Shown: positions 8,336 through 34,377 of the stretch, in pieces
Numbering within the stretch: the stretch's first letter is position 1
How the letters are laid out: every line of letters starts with the position of its first letter
Assembly (NCBI RefSeq): GCF_022846255.1
Contig: NZ_AP025682.1
Origin: Escherichia coli
GTDB taxonomy: Bacteria; Pseudomonadota; Gammaproteobacteria; Enterobacterales; Enterobacteriaceae
DNA length: 64,000 nucleotides
Strand: one strand, 5' to 3'
Translations under genes and position numbers: made by a program
Notes under the pieces: model-generated
What the model was told of the DNA's origin: nothing
Seen by the model: only the letters and a program-made list of their open reading frames with translations
The model's database searches: none

Positions 8336-9292
8336 GTGAGACTCGTCCCGCTCTACCGCAACGCCCTTCTATTAACAGGACTTTTGCTTTCAGGAATAGC
8401 CGTAGTTCAGGCCGCCGACTGGCCGCGTCAGATTACTGACAGCCGGGGCACTCATACCCTGGAAAGCCAGCCGCAGCGTATTGTTTCCACCAGCGTCACC
8501 CTGACTGGCTCACTGCTGGCGATTGATGCTCCGGTGATCGCCAGCGGCGCGACCACGCCGAATAACCGCGTCGCGGATGACCAGGGCTTTTTACGCCAGT
8601 GGAGCAAGGTGGCGAAAGAACGCAAACTGCAACGGCTCTATATCGGCGAACCGAGCGCCGAAGCCGTTGCCGCGCAAATGCCGGATTTGATTTTAATTAG
8701 CGCAACCGGCGGGGATTCGGCGCTGGCGCTGTATGATCAGCTTTCCACCATCGCCCCGACATTAATCATCAATTACGACGACAAAAGCTGGCAGGCGCTG
8801 TTAACGCAACTTGGCGAAATTACCGGGCATGAGAAACAAGCGGCAGAGCGGATTGCACAGTTTGATAAGCAACTGGCGGCGGCGAAAGAGCAAATCAAAT
8901 TACCGCCGCAGCCGGTCACTGCCATTGTCTATACCGCCGCTGCACACAGTGCCAATCTCTGGACGCCGGAATCAGCACAAGGGCAGATGCTGGAACAACT
9001 CGGCTTTACGTTGGCGAAATTGCCCGCAGGGTTAAACGCCAGCCAAAGCCAGGGCAAACGCCATGACATCATTCAGCTTGGTGGAGAAAATCTGGCTGCA
9101 GGGTTAAATGGCGAGTCACTATTCCTGTTCGCCGGTGATCAGAAAGACGCCGATGCTATTTATGCTAATCCGCTGCTCGCGCACCTGCCTGCAGTACAAA
9201 ACAAGCAGGTTTATGCGCTGGGAACCGAGACGTTCCGTCTGGATTACTACAGCGCCATGCAAGTGCTGGATAGACTTAAGGCGCTGTTTTAA
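8336..9292 (+). CDS. fepB: Periplasmic ferric-enterobactin binding protein
   Basis: 318 aa, [58 protein letters not shown]...; signal peptide; siderophore-binding fold. Confidence 0.95.
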
Positions 9293-11661: not shown

Positions 11662-12650
11662 TTTACGTCTCTCGCCGATTAATTATCACCTGTCTGCTGT
11701 TGCTAATAGCTTGTGTGATGGCAGGCGTGTGGGGATTACGTAGCGGTGCCGTCACGCTGGAAACTTCGCAGGTATTCGCCGCGTTGATGGGCGACACGCC
11801 GCGCAGTATGACGATGGTGGTCACCGAATGGCGTTTACCACGCGTGCTGATGGCGCTGTTGATTGGCGCGGCGCTGGGCGTCAGCGGCGCGATTTTTCAG
11901 TCGCTGATGCGTAACCCGCTCGGCAGCCCTGACGTAATGGGCTTTAACACCGGGGCGTGGAGCGGCGTGCTGGTGGCGATGGTGCTGTTTGGTCAGGACC
12001 TGACGGCTATCGCGCTGGCAGCAATGGTGGGCGGCATTGTCACTTCGCTGTTGGTCTGGCTGCTCGCCTGGCGTAACGGTATCGACACCTTTCGGTTGAT
12101 TATTATCGGTATCGGTGTTCGCGCCATGCTGGTGGCCTTTAATACCTGGCTGTTGCTGAAAGCGTCTTTAGAAACGGCGCTAACAGCGGGTTTGTGGAAT
12201 GCCGGATCGCTCAATGGCCTGACGTGGGCAAAAACCTCGCCTTCCGCACCCATCATTATATTAATGTTAATTGCCGCCGCCTTGCTGGTGCGGCGAATGC
12301 GCTTGCTGGAAATGGGCGATGATACCGCATGTGCGCTGGGCGTCAGCGTCGAACGTTCGCGACTGTTAATGATGCTGGTCGCCGTAGTGCTTACCGCAGC
12401 TGCCACTGCCCTGGCGGGGCCAATTTCCTTTATTGCTTTAGTCGCGCCACACATTGCCCGCCGCATCAGTGGCACCGCTCGCTGGGGGCTGACCCAGGCG
12501 GCGCTGTGCGGGGCGTTGTTACTGCTGGTGGCCGATCTCTGCGCCCAACAACTGTTTATGCCGTATCAACTTCCGGTTGGCGTCGTTACCGTCAGCCTCG
12601 GCGGTATTTACCTTATCGTCTTGTTAATTCAGGAGTCTCGCAAAAAATGA
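11658..12650 (+). CDS. fepG: Ferric-enterobactin ABC transporter permease
   Basis: 330 aa FecCD-family permease, MIYVSRRLIITCLLLLIACVMAGVWGLRSGAVTLETSQ...; start overlaps the fepD stop. Confidence 0.93.
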   Translation: MIYVSRRLIITCLLLLIACVMAGVWGLRSGAVTLETSQVFAALMGDTPRSMTMVVTEWRLPRVLMALLIGAALGVSGAIFQSLMRNPLGSPDVMGFNTGAWSGVLVAMVLFGQDLTAIALAAMVGGIVTSLLVWLLAWRNGIDTFRLIIIGIGVRAMLVAFNTWLLLKASLETALTAGLWNAGSLNGLTWAKTSPSAPIIILMLIAAALLVRRMRLLEMGDDTACALGVSVERSRLLMMLVAVVLTAAATALAGPISFIALVAPHIARRISGTARWGLTQAALCGALLLLVADLCAQQLFMPYQLPVGVVTVSLGGIYLIVLLIQESRKK

Positions 12651-23428: not shown

Positions 23429-24364
23429 TCAAAGCATTTCCCGTGCCTGAGCTGCAATTCCGGCAGCATCAAATCCATGATGCTGACGCAACCACCCACG
23501 ATCCGCCGCTGCGGCATATTCTCCATCCATAATGCCTGCGCGTTTTAATTTGATCCCCGTTCCGGCCTCTGCCAACACTTCCGCGACCAGGCTACCAAGG
23601 CCGCCATTGACGTTATGCTCTTCAACCGTCATCACTGCTTTGCATCCTTTTAACGCTGCCAGCAATGCTTTGGTGTCGCATGGGCGAATCGACGGTACGC
23701 TGACAACTGTAGCCGCGATACCAGACTGCGCTAAAAGTTCTGCGGCATCGACCACTTCATGAACGGTAGAGCCTGTGGCTACCAGCGCCAGTTCGCTGCC
23801 CTCGCGCAAAGTCACCACGGCACCTGGTACAAATCGGTAGTCCTCATCGTGGATTTCCGGCAGGGCTTTACCGTCCATACGGATATAAACAGGCCCCTGA
23901 TAGCGAAGAGCATAATCAATCACCTGACGGCACTCCCGAGGTGAAGACGGGGCAAAGATTTGAATATTGCCGAAACCACGCATAACCGCAATGTCATCAA
24001 TCGCATGATGCGTGCTCGCCAGCGGTCCATAACTCGCCCCGGCATTCAGACCAAACAATTTTACGTTGGTAAAGTTGTAGCAGACATCAACCTTGATTTG
24101 CTCGTTAGCGCGAGCGATAAGAAATGGCGCGGCATTGCAGGTAACAGCCACCTTGCCGCCCAGCGCCAGCCCGGCAGCGGCACCAACCATGCTCTGTTCG
24201 GCAATACCCACATTCACCAGTCGGTCAGGAAATTGCTTAATAAAGGGAGCAATTTTTGCCGTAGACGTTGAATCAGCCACTACAGGCACCAAATCGATCC
24301 CCTCATTTACGGCATCGATAAATGCCTGAACCATCACATTTGCCAGATGTTCACTGTTACGCAT
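23429..24364 (-). CDS. Transketolase C-terminal (pyrimidine-binding) subunit of a split transketolase
   Basis: 311 aa, MRNSEHLANVMVQAFIDAVNEGIDLVPVVADSTSTAKIAPFIKQFPDRLVNVGIAEQSMVGAAAGLALGGK...; overlaps the N-subunit gene by 8 bp. Confidence 0.85.
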   Translation of the reverse strand: MRNSEHLANVMVQAFIDAVNEGIDLVPVVADSTSTAKIAPFIKQFPDRLVNVGIAEQSMVGAAAGLALGGKVAVTCNAAPFLIARANEQIKVDVCYNFTNVKLFGLNAGASYGPLASTHHAIDDIAVMRGFGNIQIFAPSSPRECRQVIDYALRYQGPVYIRMDGKALPEIHDEDYRFVPGAVVTLREGSELALVATGSTVHEVVDAAELLAQSGIAATVVSVPSIRPCDTKALLAALKGCKAVMTVEEHNVNGGLGSLVAEVLAEAGTGIKLKRAGIMDGEYAAAADRGWLRQHHGFDAAGIAAQAREML

Positions 24365-25187
24365 CTTTGAGTTCCTTCAGTGCCTGTTCAATTTCATCGC
24401 CTTTCGGCACCCGGTGATGCCATTCCGCACGCCCTTGTATAAAGGAAATGCCTGCCCCTTTAGTGGTGTGGGCAATCACCACATTCGGTTTGCCTTCCTG
24501 TTTAAGCCCTTCAAGCGTCGCGACAACCGAAGCCATATCATTGCCCTGACATTCGGTAACCTGCATACCGAATGCCAGCCATTTCTCTGCCAGAGGATCG
24601 GTGTTCATGATTTCGCGCGTTGGCCCGGCTAATTGCAGATTATTTTTGTCATTAATAATGACCAGGTTATCAAGCCCGTAATGCGCCGCCGCCAGTGCAG
24701 CTTCCCAGTTACTGCCCTCAGCCAGCTCACCATCGCCAGTAATTAAGAAGATACGACGACGGCTTTGACTTTTTTTCGCCGCCAGCGCAAGTCCTACAGC
24801 CACAGGGAAACCATGTCCCAGTGCTCCGGTATTCAGTTCAATACCTGGCGTTTTTTGCCGAACCGGATGGCCGGGTAAGTGTGAATTTGGCTGCTGATAA
24901 GTGGAAAGCCATTCCAGTGGGAAGAATCCTGCTTCCGCCAGCACGCAGTAGTAACATCCAACAGCATGGCCTTTTGACTGAATGTATATATCCCGGTCAT
25001 CGTCGTGAAGGCGATCCGGGGCGACATTGAGAATACGAAAATAGAGTGCGGTCAGTAATTCAACCTGAGAGAGATCGGCCCCAGTGTGTCCACCTGCCGG
25101 GCTATTGGCATTTAAGCGCACGATATGGCAGCGTACCGCCCGCGCTTTACGCTCAAGGGTCTGGATATCATAGCTATAGGGATTCAT
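24357..25187 (-). CDS. Transketolase N-terminal (thiamine-diphosphate binding) subunit
   Basis: 276 aa with TPP-binding GDGELAEGSNWEAALAAAHYGLDNLVIINDKN motif; first gene of a two-gene unit divergent from the regulator. Confidence 0.85.
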   Translation of the reverse strand: MNPYSYDIQTLERKARAVRCHIVRLNANSPAGGHTGADLSQVELLTALYFRILNVAPDRLHDDDRDIYIQSKGHAVGCYYCVLAEAGFFPLEWLSTYQQPNSHLPGHPVRQKTPGIELNTGALGHGFPVAVGLALAAKKSQSRRRIFLITGDGELAEGSNWEAALAAAHYGLDNLVIINDKNNLQLAGPTREIMNTDPLAEKWLAFGMQVTECQGNDMASVVATLEGLKQEGKPNVVIAHTTKGAGISFIQGRAEWHHRVPKGDEIEQALKELKDA

Positions 25188-25367
25188 TTAATACCTCTGA
25201 ATTTATTTTCAACATGGAATATTTATTCCACCGGGGACTAAAAAAACCAGAAATCCCAGGGCGTTGCGCGGCAAGACTTACGCTGCTGCATCATACTCAG
25301 GAACATTCTGCCTCCTTACACCGTCAGTTACGTGTCCGGGTAATCATCAGTTGACCTGATATCATCT

Positions 25368-25381
25368 TGAATATATATTCA
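25368..25381. promoter_or_regulatory. Palindrome TGAATATATATTCA in the transketolase / regulator divergent promoter region; candidate operator
   Basis: Direct reading; the same 12-bp core GAATATATATTC recurs at 26729..26740 upstream of the kinase-transporter operon. Confidence 0.45.
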
Positions 25382-25549
25382 ATAATGATTCTTTATTCAA
25401 TTATGCCGCCTGTTTTTTATTTTTGTCCATCGCTGATTTTAAGGATTGGTTAAAGTTAGAACTCCATCACACTTAACTGTCTTCTTTTTTCGCGTATGAT
25501 AAAAGCCTCTAAGATAAGGGCGGTACGTTAATGATTTACGGGGAAATAT

Positions 25550-26500
25550 ATGGCTAAGCAGGATGAACAGCGGCTACTGGTGAAGATCGCCACTCTTTAC
25601 TATCTTGAGGGGCGAAAACAGTCTGACATCGCCCAACTTCTCTCGCTTTCTCAGTCATTTATCTCCAGAGCGCTAACCCGTTGCCAGAAAGAAGGCGTGG
25701 TTAAAATCAGCGTTGTCCAGCCGTCAAATATCTTTCTCAATCTGGAAAAAGGCATTGAAGAGCGTTACGGCATTAAACAAGCGATTGTTGTCGATACCGA
25801 AGATGATGCCACTGACCATACCATTAAACGTGCTATCGGCTCTGCCGCCGCGCACTATCTGGAAACGCGTTTAAGACCAAAAGATTTCATTGGCGTCTCT
25901 TCCTGGAGTTCTACGATTCGCGCGATGGTCGATGAAGTTCACGCCCAAAACTTAAAAGCCAGCGGCGTTATTCAGCTGCTGGGCGGCGTGGGGCCAAACG
26001 GCAATGTGCAGGCAACTATTTTGACACAGACCCTGGCCCAGCATCTGAATTGCGAAGCCTGGTTGCTTCCTTCTCAAAGCATTGAAGGTTCGGTAGAAGA
26101 GAAAAAACGCCTGGTGGCAAGCCAGGATGTGGCTGACGTTATCGCCAGATTTGACGACGTCGATATCGCCATTGTCGGCATCGGTATCCTTGAACCCTCG
26201 CAGTTGCTAAAAACCTCGGGCAACTATTATCACGAGGATATGTTACAGGTACTGGCGGATCGCGGTGCTGTGGGCGATATCTGCCTGCACTACTACGATA
26301 AACATGGTCAGCCCGTGTTGCAGGACGATGAAGATCCAGTGATTGGTATGGCACTGGATAAAATCAAAAAATGCCCGAATGTGGTGGCACTGGCGGGCGG
26401 CAAAGACAAAGTTGCCGCCATCAAAGGCGCCATGCAGGGTGGTTATATTGATGTTTTGATCACTGATTTCCCCACCGCCAGAATGCTGATTGCGGATTAA
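25550..26500 (+). CDS. SorC/DeoR-family sugar-binding transcriptional regulator
   Basis: 316 aa; N-terminal HTH (QSDIAQLLSLSQSFISRALTRCQKEGVV) and C-terminal sugar-phosphate-binding domain typical of SorC/DeoR/EryD regulators. Confidence 0.85.
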   Translation: MAKQDEQRLLVKIATLYYLEGRKQSDIAQLLSLSQSFISRALTRCQKEGVVKISVVQPSNIFLNLEKGIEERYGIKQAIVVDTEDDATDHTIKRAIGSAAAHYLETRLRPKDFIGVSSWSSTIRAMVDEVHAQNLKASGVIQLLGGVGPNGNVQATILTQTLAQHLNCEAWLLPSQSIEGSVEEKKRLVASQDVADVIARFDDVDIAIVGIGILEPSQLLKTSGNYYHEDMLQVLADRGAVGDICLHYYDKHGQPVLQDDEDPVIGMALDKIKKCPNVVALAGGKDKVAAIKGAMQGGYIDVLITDFPTARMLIAD

Positions 26501-26523
26501 TCCTCTCCTCCCTTTCTTCTGCC

Positions 26524-26552
26524 CGCCTTTGCGAAAAAATCTTCTCGCAAAG
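26524..26552 (+). terminator. Hairpin downstream of the regulator gene; candidate intrinsic terminator
   Basis: cctttgcgaaaaaatcttctcgcaaagg forms a 9-bp stem; the 3' flank is not strongly T-rich, so strength is uncertain. Confidence 0.35.
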
Positions 26553-26646
26553 GCGCTTGCTTAAAAATCCTTTAATATCAATAAACTGAAATGATTCAAC
26601 AATCCTGTTTCTCGAGGCTTTCTCACCCTGTCACCACGCTTCTAAG

Positions 26647-26662
26647 TGTGATAGCCAGCACA
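26647..26662. promoter_or_regulatory. CRP-like site TGTGA-N6-GCACA upstream of the kinase-transporter operon
   Basis: tgtgatagccagcaca; 4/5 + 5/5 match to the CRP half-sites TGTGA/TCACA; about 190 bp upstream of the kinase start. Confidence 0.35.
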
Positions 26663-26728
26663 TTTGATGATTTTTTCTCTAGCTCAGGAAGAATAATCTG
26701 GCTAAGGTATAAATAAATAATCAGCATC

Positions 26729-26740
26729 GAATATATATTC
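26729..26740. promoter_or_regulatory. Second copy of the GAATATATATTC palindrome; candidate operator of the kinase-transporter-dehydrogenase operon
   Basis: Direct reading; identical 12-bp core to 25369..25380. Confidence 0.45.
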
Positions 26741-26850
26741 ACGCCTTAACACAAAATGTCACAGCAGGGCCTGATGAAGTAATAACGTGACCATGAGGAA
26801 CGCCTCATCTCCTTCCACGCCAGGATGCAATGTGACTCAGGAGACTACCT

Positions 26851-28371
26851 ATGTTTGCAGGAAATAAAGAGTTCGTTGTTGCGTTGGATGAGGGTACCAC
26901 CAATGTAAAAGCCATCGCACTTGATGGTTTCGGTAACGTGGTGGCGAAGTTTTCTCAACCACTGGCTATTCAGACGCCACGTGAAGGCTGGGTTGAGCAA
27001 TCCGGGGAAGCGTTAATCTCTGCCTCGCTTGATGTTATTGCCCAGGCCATCAACCACGTGGGGGCAGAAAATGTAGCGGCTCTGGCTATCAGTAATCAGC
27101 GTGAAACGGCTATCGGCTGGTATCGTCAGAGTGGAAAACCACTCAATGCGGCGATTACCTGGCAATGCACGCGCAGTGCAGAGTTTTGTGAAACACTTCG
27201 TCGCGAGGGCAAAGAGCAGCAAATTAAAACGACTACAGGCCTGCCTATCGCCCCGCTATTTTCCGCGTCCAAGATGCGTTGGCTACTGGAATCTACACCT
27301 GAGGGTGTGCAACTTGCCGACCAGGGTGAAATTTGTCTCGGCACCATTGATGCCTGGTTGCTATGGAACTTGACTGCTGGCGATTCATTTTGCTGCGACT
27401 ACTCTAACGCCGCGCGAACTCAATTACTTAACCTGAAAACAGGCGAGTGGGATGAGGAAATGCTGGCGTTGTTTCACATCCCACGCGCTGCATTGCCAGA
27501 AATTAAACCTTCCAGTGGCCTGTTCGGTTATACCCGAGGACTTAAAACAATTCCGGATGGTATTCCCGTCATGGCGATGGTGGGCGATTCTCACGCCGCT
27601 CTTTTTGGTCATGCGTTGGGAGAAGCGGGATGTGTGAAGGCGACCTATGGGACCGGTTCTTCCGTCATGGCCCCCGTCAACTCTGCTCAGTGTGATATCG
27701 CCACACTTGCCACAACCATTGCCTGGCATGATGGCGAAAATATTATTTACGGTCTGGAAGGAAATATCCCCCACACCGGCGATGCCGTGGCATGGATGGC
27801 TGACAGCACCGGTTTAAGTGAACTGACAGACGCGGAGCTGGCCCACGAACTGAATACCCTGCCAGCCTCAGTGGATTCGACTATGGGTGTTTATTTTGTT
27901 CCTGCTCTCACTGGCCTGGGCGCGCCATGGTGGGATGACAGCGCTCGCGGCGTGGTGTGTGGCTTAAGCCGTGGCGTAAAGCGCGCGCATTTGATTCGTG
28001 CCGCAATGGAATCAATCACTTATCAAATTGCAGATGTAGTGGAGGCAATGCAACAGCATGATGATTTTCACTTATCGGCGTTAATGGTGGATGGCGGCCC
28101 GACCAAAAATGACTGGTTGATGCAATATCAGGCGGATCTGCTGGGTTGCCCGGTGATGCGCAGTGATGTGCCAGAGCTTTCAGCCATTGGTGCGGGCCTG
28201 CTCGCCCGCAAAGCGCTTATCCCCGGTACCGTTGCAGATTTAAAAGCGTTATTAACTGAACACAGTGAATTTAAACCGGACATGGCGCGTCATCAGCGAC
28301 TGCAAAAGAGATGGCAGGAGTGGCGTCATGCGGTAAACAGAACATTATGGAAACCGGCATCGTCAATTTGA
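26851..28371 (+). CDS. FGGY-family carbohydrate kinase (xylulokinase / glycerol kinase-like)
   Basis: 506 aa, MFAGNKEFVVALDEGTTNVKAIALDGFGNVVAKF...; FGGY N- and C-terminal domain signatures. Confidence 0.85.
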   Translation: MFAGNKEFVVALDEGTTNVKAIALDGFGNVVAKFSQPLAIQTPREGWVEQSGEALISASLDVIAQAINHVGAENVAALAISNQRETAIGWYRQSGKPLNAAITWQCTRSAEFCETLRREGKEQQIKTTTGLPIAPLFSASKMRWLLESTPEGVQLADQGEICLGTIDAWLLWNLTAGDSFCCDYSNAARTQLLNLKTGEWDEEMLALFHIPRAALPEIKPSSGLFGYTRGLKTIPDGIPVMAMVGDSHAALFGHALGEAGCVKATYGTGSSVMAPVNSAQCDIATLATTIAWHDGENIIYGLEGNIPHTGDAVAWMADSTGLSELTDAELAHELNTLPASVDSTMGVYFVPALTGLGAPWWDDSARGVVCGLSRGVKRAHLIRAAMESITYQIADVVEAMQQHDDFHLSALMVDGGPTKNDWLMQYQADLLGCPVMRSDVPELSAIGAGLLARKALIPGTVADLKALLTEHSEFKPDMARHQRLQKRWQEWRHAVNRTLWKPASSI

Positions 28372-28474: not shown

Positions 28475-29410
28475 ATGAAATTACGTTTAACACTGTTAAC
28501 CGCTGCGACCCTGACTGCTCTTTCTTTTTCTGCTCATGCGGTAGAAAAAGGAACCATTATGATTATGGTCAATTCACTGGATAATCCTTATTACGCCTCG
28601 GAAGCGAAAGGTGCCAGTGAAAAAGCCCAGCAACTGGGATATAAAACGACCATTCTTTCTCATGGTGAAGATGTCAAAAAACAGAATGAACTGATCGATA
28701 CTGCAATTGGTAAAAAAGTTCAGGGCATTATTTTAGATAATGCCGACTCCACTGCCAGTGTTGCAGCCATTGAAAAAGCAAAAAAAGCAGGTATTCCCGT
28801 TATATTAATTAATCGCGAAATACCTGTGGATGATGTTGCACTGGTGCAAATTACCCATAATAACTTCCAGGCTGGCTCGGAAGTTGCCAACGTATTTGTC
28901 GAGAAAATGGGAGAGAAAGGAAAATATGCCGAACTCACCTGTAATCTTGCTGATAATAATTGCGTAACTCGCTCGAAATCTTTCCATCAGGTCATTGACC
29001 AGTTCCCTGAAATGGTCAGCGTGGCGAAGCAAGATGCCAAAGGCACGTTAATTGATGGCAAACGGATAATGGACAGTATTCTGCAAGCCCATCCCGATGT
29101 AAAAGGGGTGATTTGTGGTAATGGTCCGGTTGCACTGGGAGCTATCGCAGCACTGAAAGCAGCCAATCGCAATGACGTTATTGTTGTCGGCATTGATGGC
29201 AGTAACGATGAGCGCGATGCCGTGAAAGCCGAATCATTGCAGGCTACCGTGATGTTACAAGCGCAAGCCATTGCCGCGCAGGGGGTTACCGATTTGGATA
29301 ATTACCTGCAAAAAGGAGTTAAACCAGCCAAACAGCGGGTGATGTTCCGCGGCATTCTGATAACCAAAGATAACGCAGATAAAGTCCAGGATTTCAATAT
29401 CAAATCCTGA
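28475..29410 (+). CDS. Periplasmic sugar-binding protein of an ABC transporter (RbsB-like)
   Basis: 311 aa with signal peptide MKLRLTLLTAATLTALSFSAHA; periplasmic binding protein type I fold. Confidence 0.85.
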   Translation: MKLRLTLLTAATLTALSFSAHAVEKGTIMIMVNSLDNPYYASEAKGASEKAQQLGYKTTILSHGEDVKKQNELIDTAIGKKVQGIILDNADSTASVAAIEKAKKAGIPVILINREIPVDDVALVQITHNNFQAGSEVANVFVEKMGEKGKYAELTCNLADNNCVTRSKSFHQVIDQFPEMVSVAKQDAKGTLIDGKRIMDSILQAHPDVKGVICGNGPVALGAIAALKAANRNDVIVVGIDGSNDERDAVKAESLQATVMLQAQAIAAQGVTDLDNYLQKGVKPAKQRVMFRGILITKDNADKVQDFNIKS

Positions 29411-29456
29411 TCCCAGGTCGTTGCGCCCTCACAATGAGGGCGCAGAGGAGAATATT

Positions 29457-30077
29457 ATGGATAAAAAAGTCTGGCTGGCGCTGGCAATTCTGAGCCTGGG
29501 TGGATGTCGCATCGTCTCGCAGCAGGAACTTGCCGATCTCAAATCCCCGCCTAATCCTCATATGGCAAATATCGATCAGACCTGGCAGAAAAATATCGTG
29601 CCGCAGGTGGTAGAAAATGCACGTCCGGTTGCGGAGTTAATGGCGGCGCTACAGGCAGAAAAAGATGTCGATGCTGCCTGTAAAACGCTGGGCTATCGTT
29701 CTCAGGAAGAAAACCCGTGTATTTTCTACGTTAAGGTCGAAGGTGGCATCACCAATATTGATGCGAAATCCCGTAGCGGAAAAATGACCATCACAGATAT
29801 CAGCGGCACAAATATTGTCGTGCAGACGGGGCCAACTCTTCGCGGCACGCTTCTGCGAGATGCATATAAAGGTGCAAGCTATGAGCATTTTAACGATCAG
29901 GTTTTATTTGGTGAATATGGTCGTGCTATCAATGAGCAAGCCATCAATATGATTCAGTCGGCAAAGCTTAAAACCGGGGAAACGGTTCAGGTTTATGGCG
30001 TATTTTCTGCATGGGATATTCCGCAAACTATCCCGGATATAACGCCTGCGAAAATAGCCAGGGCGGGAGGCGAGTAA
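29457..30077 (+). CDS. DUF2291-like predicted lipoprotein embedded in the ABC transporter operon
   Basis: MDKKVWLALAILSLGGC... with a lipobox LSLGGC; start chosen at the internal Met with the signal peptide rather than the track start at 29421. Confidence 0.65.
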   Translation: MDKKVWLALAILSLGGCRIVSQQELADLKSPPNPHMANIDQTWQKNIVPQVVENARPVAELMAALQAEKDVDAACKTLGYRSQEENPCIFYVKVEGGITNIDAKSRSGKMTITDISGTNIVVQTGPTLRGTLLRDAYKGASYEHFNDQVLFGEYGRAINEQAINMIQSAKLKTGETVQVYGVFSAWDIPQTIPDITPAKIARAGGE

Positions 30078-30078
30078 T

Positions 30079-31623
30079 ATGTTGCCGCAAGAAATTGACA
30101 CCCCCCAGACTGATGAATCACCTGTAATCATAGAAACGCATGACTTATCGCGTATTTATCCGGGTGTGGTGGCGTTAGATAACGTGAATTACCGTGTCTA
30201 TCGCAATAGAGTGAATGTGCTTATTGGTGAAAACGGTGCGGGTAAATCCACAATGATGAAAATGCTGGCGGGGGTTGAAACACCTTCCTCAGGCAAGATC
30301 ATTCTTGATGGTAAAGAAGTTACCCTAAATTCTACCCATCAGGCCGAAAAACATGGAATTAGTATCATTTTTCAGGAACTGAATTTATTCCCGAATATGA
30401 ATGTCATAGATAACATTTTCATGGCGAATGAATTTTTTCAGAAAGGGAAGATTAACGAAAAATATCAGTATGAATTAGCCAAATCTTTATTAGAGAGACT
30501 GGAGTTGGACGTTGATCCCTATACCCAACTGGGAGAACTTGGTATTGGTCATCAGCAACTGGTGGAGATTGCCCGTGCCCTTTCTAAAGATACCCGGGTA
30601 CTGATTATGGATGAACCGACCTCGGCCCTCAGCCAGTCGGAAGTCAAAGTACTTTTCAATGTGATCGCACAACTGAAGCGCCGTGGTGTCACCATCATTT
30701 ATATCTCCCACCGTCTGGAAGAGTTGATGGAGATTGGCGATTTCATCACCATTTTCCGTGATGGTCGCTTTATTAGTGAACGCGCAGTGAGCGATGCCAG
30801 TATTCCGTGGATCATCGCACAAATGGTCGGTGATAAGAAAAAACATTTTGATTATCAACCAGCTACACAAGGTGACACTGTACTGGCGGTACTGGGGTTA
30901 ACGGCGCTGCATCCCAGCGGTGGTTACAAACTCAATGATGTGACATTCAACCTGCGTAAAGGCGAAGTTATCGGCATTTACGGCTTGCTGGGCGCAGGAC
31001 GTACTGAGCTATTTAAAGGACTGGTGGGCCTGATGCCCTGTCAGAGTGGGAAGATCCTGCTTAATGGTGAAACCATCGACAAATGCCATTTCCAGGCGCG
31101 GCTCAAAAAGGGGCTGGCGTTGGTGCCAGAAGATCGCCAGGGCGAAGGCGTCGTTCAGATGATGTCGATTCAGTCCAATATGACGCTATCCGATTTCAGC
31201 CTGCAAGGTTTTCGCCGTGCCTGGAAATGGCTGAATCCGCAAAAAGAGAGCGCCAGTGTGAAAGAGATGATCCAGCAACTGGCGATCAAAGTCAGTGATG
31301 CCGAACTCCCTATTACCTCACTCAGCGGCGGTAACCAGCAAAAAGTGGTACTTGGCAAAGCGTTGATGACCCAGCCACAGGTGGTGTTTCTTGATGAACC
31401 CACACGCGGCATTGATGTTGGCGCAAAAACCGACGTCTATCAGCTGGTGGGAAAAATGGCACAACAGGGGCTGGCAGTCATGTTCTCTTCTTCAGAACTC
31501 GATGAAGTCATGGCACTGGCAGATCGCATTCTGGTGATGGCTGATGGCCGTATTACCGCTGATCTACCCCGGGGCGAAGTCACCCGAGAGAAACTGATCG
31601 CGGCTTCAACACCTCAAGATTAA
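30079..31623 (+). CDS. Sugar ABC transporter ATPase with duplicated ATP-binding domains (RbsA-like)
   Basis: 514 aa; Walker A GENGAGKST in the first half, a second nucleotide-binding domain, signature LSGGNQQK. Confidence 0.9.
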   Translation: MLPQEIDTPQTDESPVIIETHDLSRIYPGVVALDNVNYRVYRNRVNVLIGENGAGKSTMMKMLAGVETPSSGKIILDGKEVTLNSTHQAEKHGISIIFQELNLFPNMNVIDNIFMANEFFQKGKINEKYQYELAKSLLERLELDVDPYTQLGELGIGHQQLVEIARALSKDTRVLIMDEPTSALSQSEVKVLFNVIAQLKRRGVTIIYISHRLEELMEIGDFITIFRDGRFISERAVSDASIPWIIAQMVGDKKKHFDYQPATQGDTVLAVLGLTALHPSGGYKLNDVTFNLRKGEVIGIYGLLGAGRTELFKGLVGLMPCQSGKILLNGETIDKCHFQARLKKGLALVPEDRQGEGVVQMMSIQSNMTLSDFSLQGFRRAWKWLNPQKESASVKEMIQQLAIKVSDAELPITSLSGGNQQKVVLGKALMTQPQVVFLDEPTRGIDVGAKTDVYQLVGKMAQQGLAVMFSSSELDEVMALADRILVMADGRITADLPRGEVTREKLIAASTPQD

Positions 31624-31640
31624 TCAGGCTGGAATTTCTT

Positions 31641-32708
31641 ATGAATCAGAAATATATGATCTATATGTACCTGTTGAAAGCCAGAACGTTTATCGCTCTG
31701 CTGTTAGTGATCGCCTTCTTTAGCGTGATGGTGCCTAACTTCCTGACGGCCTCTAACCTGCTGATTATGACTCAACACGTTGCGATTACCGGGCTGCTGG
31801 CAATCGGAATGACGCTGGTGATCCTGACAGGCGGCATCGATCTTTCCGTCGGCGCGGTAGCGGGGATCTGCGGAATGGTTGCCGGGGCTCTGCTAACAAA
31901 CGGCCTGCCATTGTGGAGCGGCGATATTATTTTCTTCAACGTACCGGAAGTGATCCTCTGCGTGGCGGTATTTGGCATTTTAGTGGGACTGGTGAATGGT
32001 GCGGTAATCACCCGCTTTGGTGTCGCGCCCTTTATCTGCACCCTCGGTATGATGTACGTCGCCCGTGGCTCTGCCCTGCTGTTTAATGATGGCAGCACTT
32101 ACCCCAATCTCAACGGCATGGAGGCACTGGGCAACACGGGTTTCGCCACCCTTGGTTCTGGCACGTTTTTAGGCGTTTATTTGCCAATCTGGCTGATGAT
32201 TGGCTTTTTGATTTTAGGCTACTGGATCACGACTAAAACGCCGCTCGGTCGTTATATCTATGCCATTGGTGGCAATGAATCTGCCGCGCGACTGGCAGGC
32301 GTACCCATCGTAAAAGTCAAAGTGTTCGTCTATGCGTTCTCCGGATTATGCGCCGCATTTGTCGGTTTGATTGTTGCCTCGCAGCTGCAAACCGCTCACC
32401 CAATGACCGGCAATATGTTCGAAATGGATGCTATCGGTGCCACGGTTCTTGGTGGAACTGCGCTGGCAGGTGGTCGGGGACGTGTCTCTGGCTCGATTAT
32501 CGGTGCCTTTGTCATTGTCTTCCTCGCCGATGGCATGGTGATGATGGGGGTCAGTGATTTCTGGCAAATGGTCATTAAAGGCCTCGTTATCGTCACCGCC
32601 GTGGTAGTCGATCAGTTCCAGCAAAAATTGCAAAACAAAGTCATTTTGATGCGTCGCCATGAAGAAAAGATGGCCGCCGCACCTGCCGTAAAACCGCTTT
32701 CCAGTTAA
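31641..32708 (+). CDS. Sugar ABC transporter permease (RbsC-like)
   Basis: 355 aa polytopic membrane protein of the monosaccharide ABC permease family. Confidence 0.85.
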   Translation: MNQKYMIYMYLLKARTFIALLLVIAFFSVMVPNFLTASNLLIMTQHVAITGLLAIGMTLVILTGGIDLSVGAVAGICGMVAGALLTNGLPLWSGDIIFFNVPEVILCVAVFGILVGLVNGAVITRFGVAPFICTLGMMYVARGSALLFNDGSTYPNLNGMEALGNTGFATLGSGTFLGVYLPIWLMIGFLILGYWITTKTPLGRYIYAIGGNESAARLAGVPIVKVKVFVYAFSGLCAAFVGLIVASQLQTAHPMTGNMFEMDAIGATVLGGTALAGGRGRVSGSIIGAFVIVFLADGMVMMGVSDFWQMVIKGLVIVTAVVVDQFQQKLQNKVILMRRHEEKMAAAPAVKPLSS

Positions 32709-32761
32709 TTAACATCATTCCGCCGGGCATTAAATTGCCCGGCTTATACAGGGGAAAAAAT

Positions 32762-33559
32762 ATGCAACGTAATTTTCAGGGTAAGACTGTAGTTATTACC
32801 GGGGCATGCCGGGGAATTGGGGCCGGGATCGCTGAACGCTTCGCCCGCGATGGCGCAAATCTGGTGATGGTTTCTAACGCTGCACGCGTGCATGAAACTG
32901 CTGAGCAACTGCGCCAATGTTATCAGGCTGACATTTTGTCATTAGAAGTCGATGTGACAGATGAAGCGCAAGTACAGGCACTCTATGAACAAGCGGCTGC
33001 ACGTTTTGGCAGCATCGATGTTTCCATTCAGAATGCAGGCATTATCACCATCGATTATTTTGATCGAATGCCGGCTGCTGATTTCGAAAAAGTGCTGGCG
33101 GTGAACACTACGGCAGTCTGGCTCTGCTGCCGGGAAGCAGCCAAATATATGGTGAAACAAAATCACGGCTGCCTGATCAACACCTCTTCTGGCCAGGGAC
33201 GTCAGGGGTTTATCTATACCCCACACTATGCAGCCAGCAAAATGGGTGTGATCGGCATTACGCAAAGCCTGGCGCACGAGTTAGCGCAGTGGAATATCAC
33301 TGTTAACGCCTTCTGCCCTGGTATTATCGAAAGCGAAATGTGGGACTACAACGACCGCGTATGGGGAGAAATTCTCAGTACCGATGACAAGCGTTATGGC
33401 AAAGGCGAGCTTATGGCGGAATGGGTGGAAGGTATTCCGATGAAGCGTGCCGGTAAACCTGAAGATGTTGCCGGACTGGTTGCCTTCCTCGCCTCTGACG
33501 ATGCGCGTTATCTCACCGGTCAAACCATCAACATCGACGGCGGCCTGATTATGTCGTAA
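32762..33559 (+). CDS. Short-chain dehydrogenase/reductase (polyol / sugar dehydrogenase-like)
   Basis: MQRNFQGKTVVITGACRGIGAGIAERFA...; TGxxxGIG Rossmann motif and catalytic YxxxK; ATG at 32762 preferred over the upstream TTG-initiated track start. Confidence 0.8.
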   Translation: MQRNFQGKTVVITGACRGIGAGIAERFARDGANLVMVSNAARVHETAEQLRQCYQADILSLEVDVTDEAQVQALYEQAAARFGSIDVSIQNAGIITIDYFDRMPAADFEKVLAVNTTAVWLCCREAAKYMVKQNHGCLINTSSGQGRQGFIYTPHYAASKMGVIGITQSLAHELAQWNITVNAFCPGIIESEMWDYNDRVWGEILSTDDKRYGKGELMAEWVEGIPMKRAGKPEDVAGLVAFLASDDARYLTGQTINIDGGLIMS

Positions 33560-33591
33560 TGCCCCTGCGGGCTACTAAGAGAGATATCAAA

Positions 33592-34377
33592 ATGATCGCA
33601 AAAGATTTTGCTCAACAATTGTTTGATCTCCACGATCGCGTCGCCTTTGTCACTGGCGCAGGTAGCGGTATCGGACAAATGATCGCTCTGGCTTTAGCCA
33701 GCGCAGGCGCACGAGTGGTGTGTTTTGATCTACGGGAAGATGGCGGACTCAAAGAGACGGTTAATCATATCGAAGCACTTGGCGGACAAGCCTTGTATTA
33801 CACGGGCGATGTTCGGGAATTGAGAGATCTTCGCGCAGCAGTCGCTCTGGCAAAAACACATTTTGGTCGTCTGGATATTGCCGTAAACGCCGCTGGAATC
33901 GCTAACGCAAACCCGGCGCTGGAGATGGAAAGCGAGCAATGGCAACGCGTTATCGATATCAACCTGACTGGTGTGTGGAATTCCTGTAAGGCGGAAGCCG
34001 AGTTAATGGTAGAGAACGGAGGCGGCTCGATTATAAATATTGCGTCAATGTCCGGGATTATCGTCAATCGCGGTCTGGAACAGGCTCACTACAACAGCTC
34101 CAAAGCAGGCGTGATTCATTTATCTAAAAGTCTTGCGATGGAATGGGTGAGTAAAGGGATCCGTGTGAACTCAATCAGTCCAGGATATACCGCAACACCA
34201 ATGAATACCCGACCTGAAATGGTGCATCAGACTCGGGAGTTTGAAATCCAGACGCCGATTCAGCGGATGGCGAAAGTGGAAGAGATGGCGGGTCCAGCGC
34301 TGTTCCTTGCCAGCGATGCGGCGTCGTTCTGCACTGGTGTTGATCTGGTGGTCGATGGTGGTTTTGTCTGCTGGTAA
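33592..34377 (+). CDS. Second short-chain dehydrogenase/reductase
   Basis: MIAKDFAQQLFDLHDRVAFVTGAGSGIGQMIALALA...; SDR motifs; start at 33592 preferred for its upstream gagag Shine-Dalgarno, with 33559 as alternative. Confidence 0.8.
   Translation: MIAKDFAQQLFDLHDRVAFVTGAGSGIGQMIALALASAGARVVCFDLREDGGLKETVNHIEALGGQALYYTGDVRELRDLRAAVALAKTHFGRLDIAVNAAGIANANPALEMESEQWQRVIDINLTGVWNSCKAEAELMVENGGGSIINIASMSGIIVNRGLEQAHYNSSKAGVIHLSKSLAMEWVSKGIRVNSISPGYTATPMNTRPEMVHQTREFEIQTPIQRMAKVEEMAGPALFLASDAASFCTGVDLVVDGGFVCW

Follow-up and report, generated by a model that had tools for sequence, protein, structure and literature searches.

A paired 32-bp palindromic element as the candidate operator of a SorC-family regulator in the D-apiose island of Escherichia coli

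In a 64-kb stretch of Escherichia coli DNA (the window), two identical copies of a 12-bp palindrome, GAATATATATTC, lie on either side of a gene for a SorC-type regulator (25550–26500), one copy between this gene and the divergent transketolase genes aptBA and the other upstream of the kinase gene aplK. The initial annotation had read the two copies as a dedicated operator of the neighbouring regulator. All of our computational tests support that assignment, except that there are three operators and not two: with a probability that we put at about 0.82, each palindrome is the high-affinity half of one operator in a set of three through which the 25550–26500 regulator would control an island for D-apiose catabolism. 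The functional unit is not the lone 12-mer, as had first been proposed, but a 32-bp pair of 14-mers, and the transketolase genes belong to the predicted controlled units as well, which refines the earlier picture. What is new here is the control of this cluster, that is, how the island is switched on, for which we found no description in the literature searched; the mode of control itself is ordinary.

Sequence reading and an exact pattern search both placed the palindrome at 25369–25380 (copy 1) and 26729–26740 (copy 2), and the exact search returned no further copy on either strand of the whole window, extending an earlier count that had covered intergenic regions only. Copy 1 precedes the regulator ATG (25550) by 175 bp and the ATG of the divergent transketolase (25187) by 187 bp, and the kinase ATG (26851) follows 116 bp after copy 2. 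As had been described, copy 1 extends to TGAATATATATTCA, and it continues beyond this to TTGAATATATATTCAA (TTGAA-TATATA-TTCAA), while the extended form of copy 2 is CGAATATATATTCA. The exact pattern TGAA-N6-TTCA has just two occurrences in 64 kb, both of them in the spacer between aptA and the regulator gene, and allowing two mismatches to GAATATATATTC yielded extra matches at 25199 and 25217, in the same intergenic region as copy 1. Sequences so short and AT-rich could in principle recur by chance or be left over from a local duplication; this explanation has next to no probability and is already refuted by copy expectation, shuffles and conservation. Markov models of order 1–4, trained on the window with both intergenic regions masked, predict 0.003–0.006 copies per 64 kb (0.2–0.5 per 5 Mb), none of 100 dinucleotide-preserving shuffles of the window gave any copy, the sites are conserved in about 80 species, and the two copies share no similarity past a 30-nt operator segment.

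This segment was delimited by a repeat search, in which 25368–25397 (around copy 1) and 26712–26741 (around copy 2) were found to be inverted copies with 87% identity; the repeat thus extends beyond the 12-mer, and outside these 30 nt the flanks of the two copies are unrelated. The repeat search also returned, independently, an 18-nt unit at spacings of 170 and 18 bp. The operator that these repeats belong to is 32 bp long and is made of two 14-mers of the form tGAAT-wwww-ATTCa, separated by a non-conserved 4-bp linker, so that the 14-mers start 18 bp apart; within an operator, one 14-mer is near-perfect and the other is degenerate. When 14-mers were scored against the ten outer positions of TGAATnnnnATTCA, requiring a 4-bp linker and an A/T-rich centre, exactly three such 14-N4-14 pairs were found in the window, compared with 0.04 in block shuffles.

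The palindromes noted earlier are the strong halves of two of these pairs. Operator O2 (25368–25399, TGAATATATATTCA-ataa-TGATTCTTTATTCA) has its strong half at 25368–25381 and its weak half at 25386–25399, matches the core at 19 of 20 positions, and lies between the predicted divergent promoters of aptA and the regulator gene. Operator O3 (26710–26741, TAAATAAATAATCA-gcat-CGAATATATATTCA), an inverted copy of O2 with its weak half at 26710–26723 and its strong half at 26728–26741, lies upstream of aplK. The third pair, O1 (25198–25229, TGAATTTATTTTCA-acat-GGAATATTTATTCC), which was absent from the initial annotation, is a degenerate site pair that abuts the aptA ribosome-binding site; its right half is invariant in 19 aligned loci. 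At the junction of the O2 halves there is also an overlapping pseudo-site, TCAATAATGATTCT (25381–25394), with 8/10 core matches and 11 bp from the strong half; an overlapping pseudo-site of this kind is present at 43% of strong sites across loci and is probably a by-product of the two real halves.

To examine these elements in related bacteria, we used 80 loci, obtained by scanning a single genome for each species with aligned regulator orthologues. Loci L002–L031 have the E. coli gene order and regulators that are 83–99% identical, and loci L032–L081, which include Pectobacterium and a Vibrio, are rearranged, with regulators that are 70–74% identical and a different binding protein. In a MAFFT alignment of the two intergenic regions from 19 loci (genera or strains), O1, O2 and O3 appear as nearly invariant blocks amid drifting intergenic DNA, so the comparison of orthologous islands, which had been suggested as a check on the palindromes, reveals the motif as a phylogenetic footprint whose flanks drift. 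We collected 138 strong sites in 1.13 Mb and counted as a partner any 14-mer with at least 7/10 core matches: 61% of strong 14-mers had a partner at +18, 39% at −18 and 0% at ±21. A 4-bp linker joins 211 pairs, and no other length between 0 and 11 bp accounts for more than 23; the bases of the linker show no conservation, the centre of the half-site is A/T, and the 18-bp spacing recurs in every lineage examined. Nearly all of these pairs (207/211) are found in the 420 bp that precede an aptA, regulator, kinase, binding-protein or permease gene, and at least one pair is present in 84 of 87 loci, ranging from Enterobacterales and Vibrio to GC-rich Pseudomonas, the remaining three loci being incomplete. 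The motif is also specific: neither the remainder of the window nor the non-apiose parts of the related loci (1.07 Mb) contain it, and within these loci every copy of the 12-mer (109/109) lies inside a pair.

The motif is conserved together with the regulator even where the cluster itself is altered. The closest solved structure to the regulator (2r5f) pointed to Pseudomonas, and we therefore examined this genus, where three loci, whose regulators are 57–59% identical, each possess one control region, located between aptA and the genes for the transporter. This region holds two 14-N4-14 pairs, which in one of the loci (L085) read TGAATATTTATTCA-cacc-TGAAAATATATTTA and CGAATTAACAGTCA-ggca-TGCATATATATTCA. 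Pectobacterium and Vibrio loci carry such pairs as well, and in the Salmonella cluster, where an MFS transporter replaces the ABC system, pairs occur upstream of the kinase, SDR and aptA genes. The occurrence of pairs in the Pseudomonas and Salmonella variants thus indicates that the motif stays with the regulator and its cluster even as gene order, transporter type and genome composition change.

These data bear on the view that the AT-rich blocks are promoter elements (−10 boxes or UP elements) or targets of H-NS-type silencing on an acquired island, rather than an operator. The two intergenic regions are AT-rich (38% and 42% GC, compared with 52% for the window), the palindrome contains TATATT/TATATA, which scores as a −10, and CGAATATATATT resembles published H-NS nucleation motifs. 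Neither promoter elements nor silencing would explain the symmetric G and C at fixed positions, the strict 18-bp pairing or the recurrence upstream of four gene types, however, and the motif persists in GC-rich Pseudomonas. Moreover, among 384 palindromes of equal composition, this one has 111 copies, compared with 16 for the runner-up and a median of 0, and we consider this view very unlikely.

Spacing and gene context also decide on the arginine repressor ArgR. The E. coli ARG-box consensus has the core TGAAT-wwww-ATTCA, identical to the 14-bp core described here; copy 1 (CTTGAATATATATTCAAT) fits it perfectly, ARG boxes occur as tandem pairs overlapping promoters, much as the apiose sites come in tandem pairs over predicted promoters, and Enterobacterales and Vibrio all have an E. 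coli-type ArgR. Canonical ArgR sites, however, consist of two 18-bp boxes with 3 bp between them, giving a 21-bp period (PMC6640053), as opposed to the 18 bp of the apiose operators; no strong site has a partner at ±21, and only 5 pairs show 21-bp spacing, compared with 211 at 18 bp. Arginine genes were not found nearby in the annotation of a relative or in NCBIfam scans, the apiose operators are attached to sugar genes only, and the motif tracks the apiose cluster. The operators occur in Pseudomonas too, whose ArgR is a protein of the AraC/XylS type (PMC10963909), so they are not limited to taxa that have a hexameric ArgR. The sites are thus highly unlikely to be ARG boxes, a reading that we reject on spacing, gene context and the Pseudomonas occurrence. 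A Fur box, prompted by the neighbouring ent genes, was rejected as well: AATAATGATTCTTTATTCA matches at about 10 of 19 positions by eye, and orthologues keep the operator bases TGAyTC and not ATAAT.

The preferred candidate for recognising the operators, the product of the plus-strand gene at 25550–26500, is a protein of 316 amino acids of the SorC/DeoR subfamily that combines a short N-terminal helix-turn-helix (HTH) with a PF04198 (Sugar-bind) domain at residues 63–314 (E = 6.3e-62). The best NCBIfam model is the Bacillus-type DeoR, although below its cut-off (201 vs 420 bits), followed by LsrR, and the protein aligns over its full length with SorC, DeoR and LsrR structures (2r5f, 2w48, 8r7y and 4l5i). 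Residues 3–55 align without gaps with the DeoR DNA-binding domain 7bhy (E = 1e-4) and with SorC 2w48, and CggR structures align from residue 64 onward only; judged from these alignments, the N-terminal HTH is of the short DeoR type (~55 amino acids) and not a CggR-type winged helix of ~100 amino acids. From E. coli to Pseudomonas, and down to an overall identity of 57%, the recognition helix reads LSQSF(I/V)SR without exception. Arg40 is the counterpart of DeoR Arg39, which contacts the G of TTGAA (PMC11229326); as a conserved arginine predicted to read this G, it is invariant in 15 + 8 orthologues.

Bacillus subtilis DeoR, which acts at the dra-nupC-pdp operator, shares the domain plan of a short HTH followed by PF04198 (PMC11229326), and its operator offers the closest parallel. 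This operator, ATTGAACAAAATTTCAAT-TACC-AATTTACATATGTTCAA, consists of a TTGAA-N6-TTCAA palindrome and a degenerate second half, and the DeoR tetramer needs both half-operators for binding (PMC11229326). The half-site TGAA-N6-TTCA is common to the DeoR OL site (ATTGAACAAAATTTCAAT) and the apiose site (TTGAATATATATTCAA), one strong half stands beside one weak half in DeoR and CggR operators as it does here, and the DeoR operator overlaps its promoter just as the apiose operators overlap predicted promoters. The inducer of DeoR is a phosphosugar of the regulated pathway, and the same would hold for the apiose regulator. The two systems differ in that the proteins are distant in sequence (119 bits to 8r7y), the central spacer of the apiose half-site is strongly A/T (ATAT), operators and transcription units number three each rather than one, and the substrate is a branched pentose instead of deoxyribose.

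In gene neighbourhood the system resembles E. coli LsrR/LsrK, where a SorC-family regulator likewise stands beside an FGGY kinase and a ribose-type ABC transporter (PMC5137460). LsrR represses the operon and itself via two boxes in the divergent promoter region and is released by the product of the kinase (PMC5137460); its control region contains CRP sites, matched here by CRP-like ones. The LsrR boxes differ in sequence (AACAAT ... AAGATTTAA), the apiose regulator scores only 102 bits against LsrR structures, and its gene forms a separate unit between two regulated operons, unlike in lsr.

Predicted promoters in both intergenic regions would place the operators close to transcription starts. 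For aptA, a consensus scan gave a promoter-like site at 25400–25429 on the minus strand (TGGACA-18-CATAAT), whose predicted −10 abuts the weak half of O2, so that about +1 to +30 of the aptA transcript would fall under O2; the alignment shows conservation of both hexamers, and Salmonella has TAGACA-18-CATAAT with the operator immediately after it. A predicted regulator promoter at 25351–25379 on the plus strand (TTGACC-17-TATATT, with a conserved GTTGAC) has its −10 inside palindrome copy 1, and a second promoter-like site upstream of the regulator gene lies in a conserved block at 25473–25500, also on the plus strand (TTAACT-16-TATGAT). Upstream of aplK, the consensus scan found no good −35 hexamer. 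This region has a CRP-like site, TGTGATAGCCAGCACA (26647–26662), which matches 9/10 core positions, is conserved across genera, and is followed by an invariant block, GGCTAAGGTA; it is the only CRP-like site in the window with at most one mismatch; O3 lies downstream of it, and the probable transcription start of aplK ~60 bp downstream. If TAAGGT is the aplK −10, the CRP site would be centred at about −61 and O3 would span about −6 to +26. A weaker CRP-like site, TTAGAACTCCATCACA (25456–25471), lies upstream of the second regulator promoter, and the two CRP-like sites suggest catabolite control of the island. Just past the regulator stop codon, a hairpin (CGCCTTTGCGAAAA / TTCTCGCAAAGGCG, 26524–26555, plus strand), whose stem persists in the alignment although other genera have changed bases in it, is probably a terminator between the regulator gene and the aplK operon; a terminator scan missed it because it has no clean T-run.

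In the mechanism that we propose, a strong half paired with a weak half would accommodate a dimer of dimers (tetramer), as in B. subtilis DeoR and CggR. O2 would cover the start of the aptA promoter together with the −10 of the divergent regulator promoter, O3 would cover the start region of the CRP-assisted promoter of the aplK-transporter-SDR operon, and O1 would sit on the DNA of the aptA ribosome-binding site. Without substrate, the tetramer would block its own gene along with aptBA and the aplK operon; release of the repressor would then come through a phosphosugar that AplK produces, most likely apulose-4-phosphate, and CRP would add catabolite control on top. Release by a phosphosugar is proposed by analogy with LsrR and phospho-AI-2, DeoR and deoxyribose-5-phosphate, and CggR and fructose-1,6-bisphosphate (PMC5137460, PMC11229326). 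The context for a tetramer and a phosphosugar inducer is that the sites occur in pairs and that an FGGY kinase lies within the predicted regulon. The sequence comparisons establish the sites themselves, how they are built, how specific they are and that they are conserved along with the regulator; binding, repression (as opposed to activation), the oligomeric state, the promoter positions and the identity of the inducer are what we infer. DNA looping between O1 and O2 was considered and set aside, since their distance varies between 115 and 175 bp among genera, leaving phased looping without evidence.

Alternatively, the regulator might bind these sites and mainly activate transcription, or act in both directions as Klebsiella pneumoniae SorC does, rather than being a simple repressor. 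The SorC family contains dual regulators, the promoter positions are predicted only, and O1 lies far downstream of the predicted aptA promoter, all of which would be compatible with such a role. Nevertheless, O2 and O3 are positioned over the predicted −10/+1 or shortly after it and not upstream of a −35, the CRP-like site already supplies an activator position, and phosphosugars release the repressors DeoR, CggR and LsrR (PMC11229326, PMC5137460); we therefore regard an activating or dual role as unlikely, though it is the least improbable of the alternatives considered.

Several points weigh against control of the island by this regulator as we describe it. All promoter positions are consensus matches, and the literature searched yielded no binding or expression data for the regulator. 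K. pneumoniae SorC is both an activator and a repressor, so that the sign of control may differ from plain repression. Within the DNA-binding domain, the counterpart of DeoR Arg34 is a glutamine in the apiose regulator, Gln35, which is as invariant in the orthologues as Arg40. Counted on published sequences, half-operators are spaced by 18 bp in the apiose system compared with 22–23 bp for DeoR and 20 bp for CggR; the geometry of the solved DeoR complex therefore cannot simply be copied, although the CggR value means that spacing varies within the family, which lowers a claim of identical geometry and not one of family membership. Searches for the motif covered the 64-kb window, one E. coli locus of 30 kb and related loci totalling 1.07 Mb. 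Finally, every locus that bears the motif also carries the whole cluster, so that co-occurrence cannot formally separate the regulator from another cluster-linked factor; a cluster with an AptA-like transketolase and no SorC regulator was not found, and the Salmonella variant has both the regulator and operators.

A further reading, which we advance tentatively and with well under even confidence, is that the apiose regulator represents a distinct geometry of SorC/DeoR tetramer operators, with 14-mer starts 18 bp (~1.7 helical turns) apart, an A/T centre of the strong half that doubles as a −10, and a leader frame that might add a second control layer. If so, repressor and RNA polymerase would compete for the same bases at three promoters, and the system would offer a compact, orthogonal apiose-inducible switch as well as a test case for how SorC tetramers adapt to half-operator phasing.

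The leader frame in question comprises 22 codons (MFLSMMQQRKSCRATPWDFWFF followed by a stop codon; 25238–25306, minus strand), is preceded by a GGAGG Shine-Dalgarno sequence and lies in the aptA leader between O2 and O1. Of the 29 loci that share the E. coli gene order, 20 keep its length and its ends (MFLS... and ...WFF-stop), and in the others it is frame-shifted or absent; in Salmonella it has only five codons. In nucleotide sequence, conservation is seen at both ends (GGAGGCAGAATGTTCCTGAGT and CTGGTTTTTTTAGTCCC) and the middle is variable; the frame could encode a leader peptide or could mark two DNA/RNA elements. A fold of 25185–25395 (minus strand) gave z = −0.83, lending no support to RNA structure in the aptA leader.

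The D-apiose pathway was defined in Pectobacterium. In the window, the D-apiose catabolic island occupies ~11 kb between entD, which flanks it on the transketolase side, and hokE, which lies past two SDR oxidoreductase genes; the gene order was assigned from the annotation of a close relative together with NCBIfam scans. On the minus strand, aptB (23429–24364) and aptA (24357–25187) encode the two halves of a split transketolase and together span 23429–25187. Beyond the regulator gene, the plus strand carries aplK, encoding an FGGY kinase (26851–28371), the genes of an ABC transporter (substrate-binding protein, DUF2291 protein, ATPase and permease; 28475–32708) and those of the two SDR oxidoreductases (32735–33559 and 33559–34377). 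The names aptA, aptB and aplK, and the function of aptA/aptB as an apulose-4-phosphate transketolase, follow PMC13001218, which attributes the D-apiose catabolic cluster to Carter et al. 2018. As in the cluster definition of PMC13001218, aptA/aptB and aplK lie no more than 10 genes apart and, for Escherichia, downstream of entD, and the cluster is of the PWY-8089 type.

The D-apiose cluster was recently described as a hallmark of the E. coli lineages ST131 and STc14, and growth on apiose has been shown experimentally for E. coli carriers (PMC13001218). The island analysed here is the same as in these lineages, with two oxidoreductases replacing apsI. Beyond PMC13001218, searching the literature for a regulator or operator of the apiose genes gave nothing relevant, and the text of that paper does not contain the words regulator, promoter or SorC and does not cover the control region described here. 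The segment 23400–29500 is present in 630 of 5,426 complete E. coli genomes, on the chromosome every time. In one complete E. coli genome (hit H10, NZ_OZ040716.1), an insertion of IS903B (IS5-like) in the apiose region splits the match to this segment in two.

The island is a core feature of the pandemic extraintestinal pathogenic E. coli clones ST131 and ST1193/STc14 and permits growth on the plant sugar D-apiose (PMC13001218). The operator, the predicted repressor and the CRP site make the timing of expression in the gut, the inducer, and cross-regulation in strains with two clusters open to experiment. The 32-bp operator could further serve as a regulon probe for ~100 genera and is a candidate apiose-responsive expression switch or biosensor, and its 18-bp phasing offers a natural variant for structural work on SorC-family tetramers.

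Two further observations concern the distribution of operators and clusters. Four operator pairs, at 12405–12670 in L033 and at 8488–8862 in L065, are not upstream of homologues of E. coli island genes; in Kluyvera and Citrobacter they may point to further genes of the regulon, such as apsI or another transporter. In Citrobacter amalonaticus, both cluster types occur within one named species, an E. coli-like type with two SDRs (L006 and L007) and a rearranged type with a different binding protein (L045); their regulators are ~74% identical and the operator motif is common to both, so that cross-regulation is possible if both cluster types share one cell.

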